From IMG/VR virus record IMGVR_UViG_3300028591_000144: 33,480 nt of DNA; one strand, written 5' to 3'. Below the pieces are notes generated by a model. It was not told the origin of the DNA, made no database searches, and was given only the letters and a program-made list of their open reading frames with translations. The stretch comes from a virus. Each line of letters begins with the position of its first letter. Within the stretch, counting starts at the first letter, position 1. This document shows, one piece after another, positions 1 to 11,837 of this stretch. Made by a program: the position numbers and the translations under genes.

Positions 1-160
1 GTCCTTTTCTCTCTGTTCTTTTTTTTTTTTTGTTGGGGGGGGGGGGGGGGGGGGAGTTACACCTGAGAGTGCCGCACTACTCTTCTATCGGGAGGATTCA
101 GAGTCTCGGCGCGCAGCCAGAGAGGGCGCCCCGGACAAACGTCCCCGTAGTCTAGTCTGT
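1..160. other. GC-rich terminal segment with T13 (19-31) and G20 (35-54) homopolymers
   Basis: Homopolymer runs and about 60 percent GC read directly. Unlike the rest of the window. Possible contig end or two-colour poly-G artefact, or a genome terminus. Confidence 0.5.
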
Positions 161-200
161 CCCTGCTGGGATGGGTTGGGCCGCAATATTCCGAATTTAA
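158..200 (+). repeat. Module-A G-triplet box copy 1 (CCTGCTGGGATGGGTTGGGCCGCAA)
   Basis: Member of a 12-copy family CNGTGCTGGGWWGGGNTGGGNNGCAA. Confidence 0.7.
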
Positions 201-421
201 CAAAACAAAACATAACGAAAAAACGACAAGCGGAAGTGTATAACATTGTCCAGAACTATTCTTTCCCGAAAGAAAAAGGCATGTCGTGAGAAGCCCCTAA
301 AATAGGGGCTTTTTTTGATATACGAAAAAAAATATTGCTAAAAAATTTTTTTTGATTTATAAAGAAATCACAACAGCAGAGCAAACAAAAAATCTTTCGA
401 CTCTGCAAGAAAGGAAAGAAA

Positions 422-622
422 ATGAAAGCAATGAAAGTAAGAGTATGCGTGCAGGCATATGACCCTGCATGGTATGAGGAAGAAGTTGTCCTTGTGCATG
501 AATACAATGGCATGGACGTCAAAAGCGTCCTGCATGGCATTGAAGAATATCGCCGTGCGCAAGGTGACGGCGAAGGCGGTGTGGTGTTCGTTACCGCCTT
601 CGTAGAAAAGGGGGAAGAATAA
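422..622 (+). CDS. hypothetical small protein (66 aa)
   Basis: ORF track. SD AAAGGAAAG upstream. Follows a module-A leader hairpin gcagag/ctctgc. Confidence 0.55.
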   Translation: MKAMKVRVCVQAYDPAWYEEEVVLVHEYNGMDVKSVLHGIEEYRRAQGDGEGGVVFVTAFVEKGEE

Positions 623-826
623 ATGATAGTATTCTTTGCAATCGCTTTTGCAATAGTGAGCATTGTGTTCGCTATTGTGAGCGTGACAACAGCTACCTTG
701 ACCATTCAGATTGACGGCGAACGCACCGCCGTCTTTTACGGATGGAAAAGTTTCTGCTGGTACCGCAAGAACTGCGGTACAAAGCGGACACGCTACAGGT
801 TAATCAAAATTGAGGGGCTCTTTTGA
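623..826 (+). CDS. hypothetical protein with hydrophobic N-terminus (67 aa)
   Basis: ORF track. Start overlaps previous stop (TAAATG). Followed by terminator. Confidence 0.5.
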   Translation: MIVFFAIAFAIVSIVFAIVSVTTATLTIQIDGERTAVFYGWKSFCWYRKNCGTKRTRYRLIKIEGLF

Positions 827-839
827 GTCCCTCAGAACA

Positions 840-873
840 GACCTCGGAGAGAAAACTCCGAGGTCTTTTTTTT
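840..873 (+). terminator. rho-independent terminator
   Basis: gacctcggag-agaaaa-ctccgaggtc followed by T8. Confidence 0.8.
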
Positions 874-907
874 GCCTTACGATACCCCGACATAGCAAAT
901 CTATTCG

Positions 908-950
908 CCTGTCCCTGCTGGGATGGGTTGGGCCGCAATGCCTGCTGATT
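908..950 (+). repeat. Module-A G-triplet box copy 2
   Basis: gtccctgctgggatgggttgggccgcaatg. Confidence 0.7.
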
Positions 951-1043
951 TCAGTTACAAAAGTATTACGAAAAAAACAAAATCCTGGGCAACAAAAGCA
1001 AGTTGTGACTGTCAATTCCCGAAAGAAAAGAGTATGCCGCCAA

Positions 1044-1069
1044 AAGCCCCTAAAATAGGGGCTTTTTTT
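1044..1069 (+). terminator. module-A internal hairpin agcccct-aaaat-aggggct + T7
   Basis: Perfect 7-bp stem plus T-run, immediately upstream of the module promoter. Equivalent hairpin in every module-A copy. Confidence 0.6.
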
Positions 1070-1087
1070 AATATGTTGAAAAAAATA

Positions 1088-1116
1088 TTGCAAAAAAAAT
1101 TTTTTTGATATAAGTT
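1088..1116 (+). promoter_or_regulatory. module-A promoter TTGCAA-17-TAAGTT
   Basis: atattgcaaaaaaaatttttttgatataagtt. Same ATATTGCAA -35 context as second-half promoters. Hexamers read from sequence. Confidence 0.5.
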
Positions 1117-1206
1117 GTGATTGTCCTCAGCGAGAAACAAAAAAAACGGCACGCACCACCGCAAGGGCGTGAAACTCCGTAGGCTGTAGGACAGGAAGGA
1201 AAAACC
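1117..1206 (+). promoter_or_regulatory. conserved structured 5' leader (nested hairpins gtcctcagc/gctgtaggac and cacgc/gcgtg)
   Basis: Identical about 90-nt leader at 1117-1206, 3352-3442 and 5383-5461. Covarying variants elsewhere. Confidence 0.55.
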
Positions 1207-1599
1207 ATGAAGATCGAGAATTACAATCACTACAGCAGAAAGCAGGTCAACTATGGCCTGTGTGCAGGCCGTCACGATATGCCGGTTGATGAGTGCATCT
1301 TTGAGGATACACTTGATCCGACAGATTTTGACGGAATGACCCGTGTGGCCGCACGGGAATTGAAGCAGTACCGCGGCCGCAATATCCATCTGGTGGTGTA
1401 TGCCACCGGATTGACGGCCGCAATGATTGCGGTCATCAACGTTTGCGCCGCATGGCGCATTGACCTTACGGTCATGCACTATGACCGTGCAACGGGGGGC
1501 TATCTCCCCCAAACGGTCATTGAAAGGCCGTACTGCGTGTACTGCGGGGCTGAGTACCCGCTGAACGCGCAGGAATGCCCGGAGTGTCAGGCCACCTGA
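1207..1599 (+). CDS. hypothetical protein, C-terminal CxxC...CxxC zinc ribbon (130 aa), about 55 percent GC
   Basis: ORF track. SD GGAAGGAAAAACC. Motifs CVYC and CPEC at C-terminus. Confidence 0.65.
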   Translation: MKIENYNHYSRKQVNYGLCAGRHDMPVDECIFEDTLDPTDFDGMTRVAARELKQYRGRNIHLVVYATGLTAAMIAVINVCAAWRIDLTVMHYDRATGGYLPQTVIERPYCVYCGAEYPLNAQECPECQAT

Positions 1600-1610
1600 C
1601 ACTCCACAAA

Positions 1611-1637
1611 GGTAGACGGAACGCCTTAAAGACTCCG
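1611..1637 (+). promoter_or_regulatory. 27-nt intercistronic box B copy 1 (GGTAGACGGAACGCCTTAAAGACTCCG)
   Basis: Exact 27-mer directly after the stop codon and before the next SD. 12 copies in the window. Confidence 0.75.
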
Positions 1638-1662
1638 AAACATTTATATAGGAGGAAGAAAA

Positions 1663-1980
1663 ATGATGATTAAGACTTTCACGGGAGCGATTATCGCTTC
1701 TGTGAGCAGCCAAAATGAATGGGAGCGCAACCGGCTCCCGTTCATCGTGGAGTACCGCACTCAGGGCGTGCGAATTCTTCACGGGGCCGATAGCATGGAG
1801 CTGGCTCTGTACTGGGCTCGCTTCAATGCTGAAGCCCACGCCGCAAATGCGGCACCCGCGGCAACACTGTTCATTTATGAACAGAACCGCGGGAAAGACA
1901 AGCGGTTCAACCGCTGGTTGGTTGGTGCCGTCATGTATGATGGCGAAACGGTCAGCCAGTGGGTCGAGGGTCAGGAATAA
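1663..1980 (+). CDS. hypothetical protein (105 aa)
   Basis: ORF track. SD TAGGAGGAAG. Confidence 0.65.
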   Translation: MMIKTFTGAIIASVSSQNEWERNRLPFIVEYRTQGVRILHGADSMELALYWARFNAEAHAANAAPAATLFIYEQNRGKDKRFNRWLVGAVMYDGETVSQWVEGQE

Positions 1981-10412: not shown

Positions 10413-10446
10413 CAATTTTATAAAAAAAATAGAAAGATTTTATTAT

Positions 10447-10494
10447 ATGCTTATAATTATTGTGTTTTTTATCTTAGGGAGTCTATTTGATTAA
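10447..10494 (+). CDS. tiny hydrophobic peptide MLIIIVFFILGSLFD (15 aa)
   Basis: Paralog of the 6425 and 12094 peptides. Followed by a terminator. Confidence 0.5.
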   Translation: MLIIIVFFILGSLFD

Positions 10495-10503
10495 TACAAA
10501 AAA

Positions 10504-10538
10504 AGAGAAGAGTATAAAAAACTCTTCTCTTTTTTTTT
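10504..10538 (+). terminator. rho-independent terminator
   Basis: agagaagagt-ataaaaaa-ctcttctct + T9. Confidence 0.85.
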
Positions 10539-10540
10539 AA

Positions 10541-10580
10541 CCGCCCGTGCTGGGTAGGGGTGGGCAACAAAAGCCGAGCT
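10541..10580 (+). repeat. Module-A G-triplet box copy 10
   Basis: ccgcccgtgctgggtaggggtgggcaacaaaagccgag. Confidence 0.7.
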
Positions 10581-10852
10581 TTAAACTGTAAAATAAAACA
10601 AAAAAAGATAAAACAAAAGCGGATAAAACAAAAGAGCAAATAAAAATCCCGAATTATTTTTAAGATTGCTCAAAGTACCAGTAAATACAGGGCTTTTGAA
10701 GATATATTAAAAAAAATATTGCAAAAAAAATTTTTTTGATATAAGTTGTGATTGTCAACAGGAAGCAAAACAAAAAACCTGTTGCCCCATAGGATAAGGT
10801 CGGGTTACAATTCTTATCCATTTCAAAATTTTTTCTTTAAGGAGTAAAAGCC

Positions 10853-11230
10853 ATGACTTACTTCAAAAACAATGAATGCCACGAGCTGTATGACACCATA
10901 TATGACATCCTGACTGATTGCATTGACCACAACATTGAGTCTGCTGAACTCAATCTCTCCGTCCGCAAAGATGGCATTGAAGCGAAAATCAATGACATTT
11001 ATGCGAAGTATACCACTGAATACCACTTCGGAGAGTGGAAAGCCTCCGACTTTGCCGAAGACAACTTCAGCGATGAAGACTATAAGACCTATGAAGCTCT
11101 CTCTTCTGAGTATCAAGATCTTGAAGAGTATCCCGATAAAGAGCTCCCGAAGCTTCGTAAACTTCTTAAAGAAGCTCAGGATATCGCCAAATTCCTCATT
11201 GAGGAATATGACGGCGAAATTCTTAAGTAA
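10853..11230 (+). CDS. acidic protein (125 aa)
   Basis: ORF track. SD TAAGGAGTAA. Confidence 0.65.
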   Translation: MTYFKNNECHELYDTIYDILTDCIDHNIESAELNLSVRKDGIEAKINDIYAKYTTEYHFGEWKASDFAEDNFSDEDYKTYEALSSEYQDLEEYPDKELPKLRKLLKEAQDIAKFLIEEYDGEILK

Positions 11231-11239
11231 AACTCAGCA

Positions 11240-11266
11240 GGTAGACGGAACGCCTTAAAGACTCCG
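11240..11266 (+). promoter_or_regulatory. box B copy 12
   Basis: Exact 27-mer, here immediately followed by a degenerate G-triplet box. Confidence 0.75.
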
Positions 11267-11278
11267 CAAATAAAAAAC

Positions 11279-11320
11279 CGTCCGTGCTGGGCTGGGGTGG
11301 ACTTCAAAAGCCGAGCTTCT
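11279..11320 (+). repeat. Module-A G-triplet box copy 11 (degenerate)
   Basis: ccgtccgtgctgggctggggtggacttcaaaagccgag. Confidence 0.6.
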
Positions 11321-11409
11321 CAGTCTAGATAAAAATGCAATTTTTACAAAACAAAATTGCGTTTAATTTTTAAAAAATTAAAATCCTAATATTTCGGAGG
11401 AATATTAAA

Positions 11410-11493
11410 ATGTATGAAATTTCAATAAAAAGTTCTAGCATCGATTTAGATATCATCCAATTCACTAAGTTACTTAATATTGCAGTAGAATAG
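11410..11493 (+). CDS. possible small protein (27 aa)
   Basis: SD TCGGAGGAAT 8 nt upstream of ATG. Manual ORF. Confidence 0.35.
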   Translation: MYEISIKSSSIDLDIIQFTKLLNIAVE

Positions 11494-11595
11494 GAAGATT
11501 TGCCTACTATTGAATTTTATAAAAAACTAATAAAAAAATTGCAAATTATCTCTTAGATATACAGATATCTTGAGCAAGAAAAGATAATTTAATCA

Positions 11596-11634
11596 GCCGT
11601 CCGTGCTGGGGCATTAGGTGGACTCATCAGCCGT
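11596..11634 (+). repeat. Module-A G-triplet box copy 12 (degenerate)
   Basis: ccgtccgtgctggggcattaggtggactcatcagccg. Confidence 0.55.
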
Positions 11635-11713
11635 ATTTACGACAATAATAACTTCACCAAAAGAAGAAAAAGAAATAAAACATTTACCATAGCTACTCTT
11701 ACTTCCCATAATT

Positions 11714-11752
11714 GCGCGCTTCGGCAGCGGTCCTACGCCAAGCTGGCGAAGC
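11714..11752 (+). repeat. hairpin-C family member (degenerate)
   Basis: gcgcttcggcagc...gctggcgaagcg followed by AGTTTAT. Confidence 0.5.
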
Positions 11753-11837
11753 GAGTTTATGATTTGTTTATAATATACAAAAATCTCACTCAAAATCACT
11801 ACACAATTGTGCATAAAGTAAAATCACTTATTCCCTC

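Follow-up and report, generated by a model that had tools for sequence, protein, structure and literature searches.

The 33,480-nucleotide stretch of viral DNA analysed here (IMG/VR virus record IMGVR_UViG_3300028591_000144; hereafter the window) carries densely packed small genes on the + strand with strong AGGAG-type ribosome sites. In its first 11.7 kb, which we call the early arm, copies of one composite regulatory cassette (module) stand between the operons, and each contains a G-rich box (G-box) followed by an A-rich tract of short repeats. Box and tract form a conserved, non-coding, unstructured DNA segment at every operon border, and they are the best conserved sequence of the early arm. 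We compared the window phage (phage A) with three sister phages, namely phage B (contig L133), phage C (L143) and phage D (L145). From this comparison we suggest that box and tract may be a boundary element of a new kind, bound by protein as double-stranded DNA.

Architecture of the repeated module

A complete module has a fixed order of parts: terminator (usual), G-box, A-rich ACAAAA tract, TTCC block, a second hairpin with its T-run (hairpin 2), A-run, sigma-A-like promoter (class 1) and 5' stem-loop leader. The unit is ~215 bp long, plus leader. Three types of box recur, type I CTGCTGGGATGGGTTGGGCC, type II GTGCTGGGTAGGGCTGGGTC and type III ...GGGCAGCAAAAGCCGAG. The features are listed below by position in the window, copy 8 being resolved into its parts as the reference.

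157..421, + strand: module 1; type I box CTGCTGGGATGGGTTGGGCCGCAA, strong hairpin 2, promoter TTGCTA-17-TATAAA; no upstream terminator, a GC-rich stretch and poly-G run before it
909..1206, + strand: module 2; type I box, upstream terminator at 839-874
2044..2296, + strand: module 3; type I box, promoter TTGAAA-17-TATAAA, upstream terminator at 1966-2003
3147..3442, + strand: module 4; type II box GTGCTGGGTAGGGCTGGGTCGCAA, upstream hairpin at 3089-3119 lacking a U-run
4090..4354, + strand: module 5; box GTGCTGGGAAGGGTGGGGTCACAA, weak hairpin 2
5168..5461, + strand: module 6; no phage B ortholog, within a duplication specific to phage A, upstream terminator at 5105-5138
6549..6860, + strand: module 7; type III box CGCACGTGCTGGGTAGGGCTGGGCAGCAAAAGCCGAG, upstream terminator at 6478-6510
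8285..8323, + strand: reference copy (8), first terminator (T1); 13-pair hairpin flanked by an A-run and a T-run, bidirectional in form
8326..8365, + strand: reference copy, G-box CCGCACG-TGCTGGG-TA-GGG-CT-GGG-CAGCAAAAGCCGAGTT; three G-triplets at 5-bp spacing, CG-containing flanks
8366..8426, + strand: reference copy, A-rich tract of ACAAAA-type short repeats
8427..8445, + strand: reference copy, AAAATTCCTATAATTAAAA block, of which only TCC is invariant among copies
8457..8482, + strand: reference copy, hairpin 2 and T-run (T2), -9.8 kcal/mol
8494..8532, + strand: reference copy, promoter; UP-like A-run, -35 TTGCAA (8504-8509), 17-bp A6T7GATA spacer, -10 TAAGTT (8527-8532)
8533..8613, + strand: reference copy, leader; 5' stem GUCCUCA/UGAGGAC closing an A-rich loop, stem sequences varying by copy
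9433..9715, + strand: module 9; type III box, upstream terminator at 9394-9429
10541..10852, + strand: module 10; box GTGCTGGGTAGGGGTGGGCAACAA, upstream terminator at 10501-10540, hairpin 2 in inverted form
11278..11400, + strand: partial copy 11; phage-D-type box (GTGCTGGGCTGGGGTGGA...AAAAGCCGAG), A-tract and TCC block, no class-1 promoter
11597..11640, + strand: degenerate copy 12; decayed box CGTCCGTGCTGGGGCATTAGGTGGACTCATCAGCCG, with a consensus TTGACT-17-TATAAT promoter downstream at 11838-11866

A scan with the core GTGCTGGGNNGGGNTGGG, allowing up to three mismatches, returned 11 true sites, all on the + strand, where about 0.04 would be expected by chance (positions 163, 915, 2050, 3153, 4096, 5174, 6555, 8332, 9439, 10547 and 11284). 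One further match, at 30-47, falls in the poly-G run and is no box. The scan found no G-box between 12 and 33 kb of the window, all copies lying within 0.1-11.7 kb. The first-pass annotation, made from the window alone, had counted twelve copies; the repeat is real, and alignment resolves it into ten complete modules and two partial ones (copies 11 and 12).

Within the box, three pentamers of the form (T/A)GGGN place their TGG cores one helical turn (10 bp) apart, and the adjoining tract holds short direct repeats. Measured from TGCTGGG, the G-box extends from about -7 to +32. In the ten complete copies, the A-block CGAAAAA..ACAAAAACAAAAG begins at +50 to +53, the TTCC block, with its invariant TCC, lies at +98 to +100, and the T-run of hairpin 2 begins at +145 to +148. 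An A7-9 run between hairpin 2 and the -35 is followed by ATATTGCAA (the ATATTG of the -35) at +166 to +170. The distance from terminator to box is variable, from 9 to >48 nt. The density of ACAAAA is 31 per kb in the A-rich tracts versus 1.4 per kb elsewhere, on the + strand only.

The same annotation had described a uniform ordered set of elements. Its order is right; the uniformity does not hold, since several parts vary or are missing. Intrinsic terminators with a GC-rich hairpin and U-run were called upstream of the box at 839, 1966, 5105, 6478 and 8285, and the upstream hairpins at 9394 and 10501 fold to -20 to -28 kcal/mol; in copies 1, 4 and 5 the upstream terminator is absent or lacks a U-run. 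The sequence AAATTCCTATAATTAAAA occurs in only about half of the copies, its place being taken elsewhere by TTCCCGAAAG, TCCTGATAG or TCCCGAAT, so that TCC alone is invariant. The folding energy of hairpin 2 ranges from -1.3 to -17 kcal/mol; among the 20 copies of phages A and B it reaches -8 kcal/mol or better in 13 and lies between -1.3 and -5.7 in the rest, the T-run standing ~20 nt 5' of the -35. In the window, box and tract are usually bracketed by two hairpins, each flanked by an A-run and a T-run on opposite sides. Leader sequences diverge between copies, and most leaders open with a stem closing an A-rich loop.

Two details of these parts may be recorded here. Hairpin 2 of copy 10 (CCAGTAAATACAGGG, 10660-10690) is the reverse complement of the copy 3 form (CCCTGTATTTACTGG, 2180-2200), an in-place inversion of a near-palindrome. 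Homopolymers of A23-24 lie inside leaders at 8549-8571 and 11884-11907; the same phage in another assembly differs from the window by only three gaps over 11.5 kb, which we assume to fall in homopolymers.

The promoter proposed at first pass, TTGCAA-17-TAAGTT, is present in eight copies, while copy 1 has TTGCTA/TATAAA and copy 3 TTGAAA/TATAAA. Two phage B copies (B1 and B2) carry TAGACA at the aligned -35, and phage D has TTGACA-17-TATAGT in the same slot. The assignment is upheld by this variation, because the hexamers change at aligned positions toward TATAAA, TTGAAA, TAGACA and TTGACA/TATAGT. An A7-A9 run stands directly 5' of ATATTG in 20/20 copies of phages A and B, and we take the class-1 promoters to be host sigma-A promoters helped by this run.

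Conservation and age of the copies

The protein encoded at 1207-1599 has an 85% identical homolog on bovine-rumen contigs, and this leads to phage B. Phage B is 84-93% identical to the window in nucleotide sequence over the shared parts and contains 10-11 modules in the same order. Identity of a module is 84-95% with the positional ortholog in phage B, against 53-80% with any paralog, and the three box types stand at corresponding copies in both phages. Since orthologs are closer than paralogs and the box types have been retained by each copy, the duplication must be old and the copies have not been homogenised. The copies are therefore old duplicates predating the split of phages A and B and kept by purifying selection, which acts most strongly on the G-box.

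Divergence of the individual blocks was calculated on nine A/B ortholog pairs. The G-box differs by 3.1%, the stretch after it by 5.6% and the A-block by 4.3%, followed by the TCC (TTCC) block with 6.8%, A-run and promoter with 7.9%, and hairpin 2 with 9.7%. Linkers, upstream flank and leader, pooled, differ by 21%, that is, divergence in the box is ~7-fold lower than in the linkers (Fisher p = 3e-20). Early genes differ by 7-16% between the two phages and thus more than box and tract.

These values bear on the idea that box and tract lack a function of their own. On this view they would be no more than the most ancient portion of a promoter region that was duplicated, recombination or gene conversion would keep them alike, and their only use would be to provide homology when cassettes are shuffled. 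In its favour, the modules are clearly copies of a single unit whose internal spacing is nearly constant, the ends of indels between phages A and B fall in repeats, and the comparable cassettes of T4-type phages are thought to act in this way (PMC2839356). Yet there is no homogenisation, the three types persist copy by copy, the box diverges 7-fold less than the linkers adjacent to it, and it survives in phage D, where everything else in the module has been exchanged, promoter type included. We regard this explanation as quite unlikely. The annotation had taken the identical G-boxes of copies 7-9 as a sign that the element is propagated or homogenised. The identity itself was confirmed; homogenisation was rejected, as every copy is nearer to its phage B ortholog (84-95%) than to any paralog (<=80%), and the shared box of copies 7-9 is an old, retained state.

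The box in phages C and D

Phage D contains at least ten variant boxes, CCGCGGTGGGCTG(A/T)GCTG(G/A)GGTGGCTACGCCGAATT, which align to the window boxes without gaps. The phage D box CCGCGGTGGGCTGAGCTGGGGTGGCTACGCCGAATT is clearly homologous, with the same 32-nt frame and the same CCG... / ...GCCGAAT flanks as in the window. The features common to both phages are the 5' CCG.G.TGGG, the 3' GCCGA(A/G)TT and the length of 32 nt; window copy 11 is of the phage D type. Repeats of the GTTACAGAAAAGTTAC type follow the box. In five of seven phage D units the box lies between 11 nt inside and 73 nt beyond the end of the preceding gene, the other two being 200 and 480 nt away. The next promoter, either TTGACA or of the class-2 type (see below), is found at 64, 64, 93, 213, 213, 215 or 334 bp. 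Because the box occurs near such varied promoters and at such varied distances, its link is with the operon border and with no single promoter or spacing, and the distance of 166-170 bp is a property of the A/B lineage.

The near-constant distance had made it conceivable that the ~170 bp from box to -35 form a phase-locked upstream activating region, around which RNA polymerase or a bending protein would be wrapped so as to boost the class-1 promoter. In all 20 copies of phages A and B box and -35 are 166-170 bp apart, while terminator and box are separated by 9-48 nt; small internal indels offset one another, and a promoter matching the consensus weakly may need help. Against this, the spacing has a spread of 5 bp, about half a turn, AA dinucleotides lack 10-11 bp phasing (z = -2.8 at 10.5 bp), and phage D boxes stand 64-334 bp from promoters of other types. 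Such an activating region is decidedly improbable in our opinion.

In phage C each terminator is followed by two short direct repeats (of the TTGTAACCAAATTGTAAC or GTTAGAGGT type) and then by a slot in which flanks (TTTCAAC... / ...CGAGTT) and length (32-33 nt) match the window box. Its core, CCGCCCACCCCCACCACCACC, is C-rich on the coding strand. Inversion of the whole unit was considered and rejected, as the flanks keep their orientation and only the core switches strand composition. If the relation to phage C is accepted, the core would work in either strand orientation, unlike an RNA signal, a promoter or a polar tracking word.

Polar DNA words, recognised by a translocase or nuclease in DNA entry, segregation or end protection, were nevertheless weighed. 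The E. coli KOPS word is GGGNAGGG, Chi is GCTGGTGG and SRS is GAGAAGGG; known polar motifs of Firmicutes are AGCGG and GAGAAGGG. Like such words, the box is G-rich, strand-specific and co-oriented within a phage, with intervals of ~1 kb and a poly-G tract near by. All seven + strand occurrences of GGGNAGGG in the window are in boxes, so that 7/10 complete boxes contain it, and GCTGGGTAGG and GCTGGGGTGG resemble Chi. Unlike them, the box is tied to operon boundaries and its conserved unit of ~85 nt is far longer than a word of this kind; type I boxes read GGGATGGG in place of the KOPS word, and neither the exact Chi word GCTGGTGG nor the exact SRS word GAGAAGGG is present. The host, judged by AGGAG ribosome sites and TTGACA/TATAAT promoters, is likely a Firmicute, a group whose known motifs differ. 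In phage C the core is flipped though genome layout is unchanged, and phage B contigs run through the poly-G tract into other genes, the position of a genome end not being established. A polar signal thus strikes us as very unlikely.

Phage C shows further repeated sequences of its own. About 45 copies of an 11-bp repeat, TTTGTAACCGT, occupy L143 735-1234 at the head of its early arm; the array resembles iterons or a centromere-like site for protein binding. The phage C modules also contain palindromes of Rex/CRP type, perfect or nearly so (TTGTGAAAAGTTTCACAA, TTGTTAAAATTTTAACAA), at L143 ~2990-3050, 5030-5050 and 6520-6545; they point to further operator sites, possibly for host regulators.

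Comparison with known classes of elements

The first-pass annotation had found no known promoter or terminator in the G-box and tract, and they indeed match no Rfam family and no promoter or terminator model; Rfam gave no match at or above the gathering threshold in the whole window. No reading frame is open in more than 2/20 copies, which rejects a small open reading frame (ORF). A canonical G-quadruplex was rejected too: each box has three G-triplets, and the four-tract pattern matches only the poly-G run at 35-55. Curved DNA with phased A-tracts is not indicated by the AA periodogram of 20 modules (z = -2.8 at 10.5 bp, 3.3 at 10.0 and 1.1 at 11), whose strongest peak, at 13.75 bp, we attribute to shared ancestry. 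Nor is the A-tract built of phage C 11-bp iterons (TTTGTAAC), their weight matrix matching only 3-4 modules, with just an ACAAA-like half in common.

At the level of RNA, RNAalifold applied to the 20 A and B copies from box to hairpin 2 gave -2.8 kcal/mol and no compensatory pairs, and phage D gave only a weak fold, so a conserved RNA fold was rejected. The proposal that the tract resembles a Rho-utilisation (rut) site did not hold: it contains 56% A, 14.4% C and 13.2% G with 3.5 YC per 76 nt; it is unstructured as expected of rut, but A-rich, not C-rich. A more general possibility is that box and tract act within the 3' untranslated region or read-through RNA of the upstream operon, for example as a site for a stability or processing protein or for Rho loading. 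Several observations are in line with it. In four of seven phage D units the box is 16-73 nt past the stop codon and once it overlaps the end of the ORF, at least one unit having no prior terminator, so that the box must be transcribed; terminator 1 is atypical in window copies 4 and 5; all boxes of phages A, B and D are on the coding strand; the tract is predicted to be single-stranded; and phage D boxes give a weak consensus hairpin with few two-sided changes. We still consider an RNA element unlikely, as most window copies lie behind a strong terminator, the composition (56% A, C about equal to G) is not rut-like, phages A and B show neither conserved structure nor compensatory change, and the phage C slot would yield C-rich instead of G-rich RNA.

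Another explanation makes the box a second promoter, read by a sigma-54-like factor (GG-N10-GC) or a phage RNA polymerase and giving either a short RNA ending at hairpin 2 or a second operon transcript. It would account for a strongly conserved, oriented element of ~35 bp upstream of every unit. GG and GC are 12 nt apart in most copies, as in -24/-12 promoters, conserved CCGAG/CCGAAT is located where a start would fall, and a terminator-like hairpin follows ~125 nt downstream. By eye, though, a sigma-54 promoter had to be rejected, since GC is missing in copy 5, its ortholog and every phage D box, and the other letters of TGGCAC and TTGC are unmatched. Moreover, hairpin 2 is weak or broken in 6-7/20 copies, in phage C the core has changed strand and the genes have not, and all operons visible in 33 kb have sigma-A-type promoters. 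We rate a second promoter as highly improbable.

In database searches the box core had no match in IMG/VR at first and then three single chance matches, a loose pattern for the box found only single-copy chance matches among those listed from metagenomes, none with a promoter at the right distance, and the class-1 promoter string had no match in IMG/VR. The composite pattern of box plus promoter was found in none of 185,579 genomes. These results speak against the possibility, raised in the annotation, that the box might occur at random in unrelated genomes: the viral collection and the metagenome matches listed yielded only single chance matches. INPHARED returned no match to 1-12000 (megablast) or to one module (blastn), i.e. 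no close relative among 50,697 deposited phages. Contigs L005 and L006, relatives found via the zinc-ribbon protein at 17426-17995, have class-2 modules in common with the window and no G-box. G-box and tract thus appear to be a new element belonging to no known class.

Proposed role and candidate binding protein

In the reading we prefer, to which we assign a probability of about 50%, the copies are paralogous inter-operon regulatory cassettes of an early, host-takeover-type arm, and G-box and tract are a protein-binding boundary element in double-stranded DNA. Each cassette would close one small operon of orphan genes and open the next. Its layout would comprise a terminator (often), the boundary unit of G-box and A-rich short repeats, a second, bidirectional-looking terminator, the A-run, a host sigma-A-type promoter and a leader with a 5' stem-loop. 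As double-stranded DNA, box and tract would be the platform for a sequence-specific protein, which, once bound, would mark every operon boundary. It could act as a roadblock or insulator between the two terminators, keeping ~ten tandem strong promoters independent, or it could provide one common handle by which all early units are controlled together.

A protein-binding or insulator site had already been considered in the first-pass annotation. We favour protein-bound DNA because box and tract show the lowest divergence between orthologs and no conserved RNA structure, because in phage D they are independent of promoter type and distance, and because in phage C the core is flipped to the other strand. 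Spaced TGG pentamers combined with short direct repeats, moreover, have the usual look of an oligomer-binding site. The protein partner, its binding and its effect on transcription are what we infer throughout.

The binder might be a SpoVT/AbrB-type protein encoded upstream of the early arm in the three sister phages, or a similar host protein. In phage B its gene (L133 4442-4702) directly precedes the early arm; the product scores 28.6 bits against PF04014, where the cutoff is 24.7, and also matches the N-domain of SpoVT in PDB. Phages B, C and D encode this protein with 100% identity, and an identical protein is encoded on 39 contigs. AbrB recognises TGGNA motifs in pairs, with 4-5 bp between them and in any orientation (PMC3738160). 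The boxes resemble AbrB/SpoVT sites in their TGG cores one turn apart (TGGGT-N5-TGGGC, TGGGC-N5-TGGGG), in the use of either orientation, in binding regions made up of several motifs and in the SpoVT/AbrB-domain gene adjoining the early arm of the sister phages. The strict pattern TGGNA-N4-5-TGGNA matches only at 14797 and 15169 of the window, outside the boxes and in none of them, while the looser TGG-N7-TGG is found in 9/12 boxes. Because the match is limited to TGG cores, an AbrB-type binder is a candidate and only a lead.

Several facts weigh against the preferred reading. The SpoVT/AbrB-like gene lies outside the window and its presence in phage A is assumed; the protein is identical in phages whose boxes differ in sequence. 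At position 5 of the box motif the A of AbrB sites is rare, being confined to type I boxes and copy 5, and the spacer is rich in G where that of AbrB sites is AT-rich. Phage D units often lack a terminator ahead of the box; the box is then transcribed as 3' untranslated region, leaving room for a role of the RNA. Homology of the phage C core is indicated by slot, flanks, length and G/C asymmetry (composition) only, and a hidden Markov model of the phage D boxes matched that core on neither strand. The near-constant spacing of 166-170 bp in phages A and B could reflect shared descent in place of constraint. Finally, the class-1 promoter scores 8/12 against the sigma-70 consensus and is missed by a simple scan, the same scan calling consensus promoters (11/12) from 11.8 kb on.

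A bolder version can be formulated, in which box and short-repeat unit are a dedicated boundary element. A phage (SpoVT/AbrB-like) or host protein at each border would create independent transcriptional or topological domains, the sites or repeats would also drive the very fast exchange of host-takeover cassettes seen between sister phages whose neighbouring gene is still 100% identical, and the core would be usable on either strand. We consider this version unlikely; were it true, it would constitute an integron-like diversity engine for phage early genes.

Exchange of gene cassettes at the modules

Differences between phages A and B consist of whole genes or groups of genes and end within repeats, with junctions at 375/376, 2037-2247, 3380, 6869/7333 and 7790/7994. 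The replacement of 376-835 begins just past promoter 1. Between two of its modules phage B carries three additional genes as an extra cassette, and window 2037-2247 therefore matches two places there. Gene 6861-7328 is replaced between its leader and the first intercistronic repeat, and gene 7801-7989 is absent from phage B, two 60-bp direct repeats being the precise limits of the missing stretch. The early arms of phages B, C and D are largely different, yet the protein encoded next to them is identical. Evidently, the cassettes also serve as junctions for gain, loss and replacement of gene cassettes between sister phages. None of the early ORFs has a Pfam match above cut-off, and their homologs are confined to this phage lineage.

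Inside the early operons, and only there, another repeat was noticed. The 27-nt intercistronic element GGTAGACGGAACGCCTTAAAGACTCCG is present in 12 copies, all on the + strand (1611-1637, 2942, 4848, 6132, 6371, 7337, 7735, 7999, 8957, 10091, 10386, 11240), and occurs in phage B as well. It is placed a few nt past a stop codon and 25-35 nt ahead of the next start, contains a small imperfect stem-loop (AGACG-GAA-CGCCU) and is also an indel junction. It had no match in IMG/VR. It may be an RNA processing or protein-binding site.

Other features of the genome and lineage

From 11700 to 33480 the window has intergenic modules of another class, class 2 (e.g. 12899-12935, 13384-13425, 14918-14954, 17103-17150, 19088-19130, 22150-22200). 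A long GC-rich hairpin, whose stems covary between copies, ends in GAGTTT or GTCTTT; it is followed by TTGTGCA...ATATTGCAATTTTCC, an inverted repeat TGCAATAT/ATATTGCA over the -35 and a near-consensus -10. Modules of the same kind are found on IMG/VR contig L005. After the terminators of the first two class-2 units, at 12195-12235 and 12825-12860, a 12-bp tandem GACAACAAAAGTGACAACAAAA resembles the class-1 A-tract, with no G-box.

Poly-T followed by poly-G of at least 20 Gs heads the early arm (window 14-55; L133 4959-4983; L145 2189-2319; L143 555-570). It is a true genome feature of the four phages, always located after the SpoVT/AbrB-like gene and before the first module, and assemblies break or show gaps at it. 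We rejected the idea that a poly-G produced as a sequencing artefact marks a physical genome end at the start of the window, as the G-run occurs in four phages and phage B contigs read through it.

In the sister phage, to the left of the early arm (L133 93-4421, L134 328-3575), TAG occurs in frame 1-11 times per gene in most - strand genes (YonG_N, GIY-YIG, HNH) and in the DUF488 gene on the + strand, and their stop codons are TAA or TGA. Of the 89 window ORFs with a ribosome site just two terminate at TAG, one of the two being probably spurious. TAG thus appears to be a sense codon in this lineage, and the early arm to be in standard code. A tRNA-Ser gene (anticodon CGA, 26135-26215) lies in a non-coding stretch (25850-26350) that has several promoter-like sites; other long, apparently non-coding transcribed stretches are 17240-17340, 27400-27680, 31975-32110 and 32270-32400. 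The genes 4613-4837 and 5898-6120 are paralogs of 74 codons, the second having TGA where the first has TGG (CPEW versus CPE*). This TGA is either a read-through codon or the mark of a fresh pseudogene.

Significance and comparison with known systems

Early host-takeover regions contain the least understood phage genes (anti-defence, host shut-off) and those with the fastest turnover. The present family shows the architecture of such a region unusually clearly, with ~ten self-contained units and a cis-element better conserved than promoters or genes. This element is portable, occurring with different promoter types, and its core can apparently change strand from one sister phage to another. Were it a protein-bound boundary, it would offer a simple model in a bacterial virus for the insulation of tandem strong promoters and for repeat-driven cassette exchange. 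Box and promoter can also serve as markers for locating early cassettes, and their limits, in rumen phages that are uncultured and TAG-recoded. The general principle is already known; the architecture would make a clean model, in an unusual lineage (TAG-recoded, from rumen).

In Bacillus phage SPO1 the host-takeover module lies within the terminal redundancy. The two regions are alike in size (~11-13 kb), in many very small early genes forming a dozen short operons, in a strong host-type promoter and a terminator for each operon, and in their position on one strand at one end of the map. They differ in that no sequence or protein similarity exists and the window arm is not established as a terminal repeat or physical end. 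To our knowledge, no shared upstream box of such kind has been reported for SPO1. The module is named in PMC6873191 and PMC10531801.

Promoter-early stem-loop (PeSL) cassettes, which also form encapsidated mini-circles, have been described in T4-type phages (Arbiol et al. 2010, PMC2839356; Comeau et al. 2014, PMC4122927). Of the PeSL features, four recur here in full or in part. As in PeSLs, a putative sigma-70-type early promoter is repeated together with an AT-rich upstream stretch, beside a stem-loop of varying stability that may act as a terminator, it is placed before small orphan genes in a hypervariable region, and indels or replacements between close relatives end in the repeats. On the other hand, the window lineage is unrelated and has Firmicute-type signals, no T4-like markers being seen in 33 kb, and its unit is much longer (~215 bp plus leader) with two terminators. 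The G-box and A-rich tract have no counterpart in PeSLs. The closest known kind of element is the PeSL cassette of T4-type phages, to which G-box and tract add a new part.

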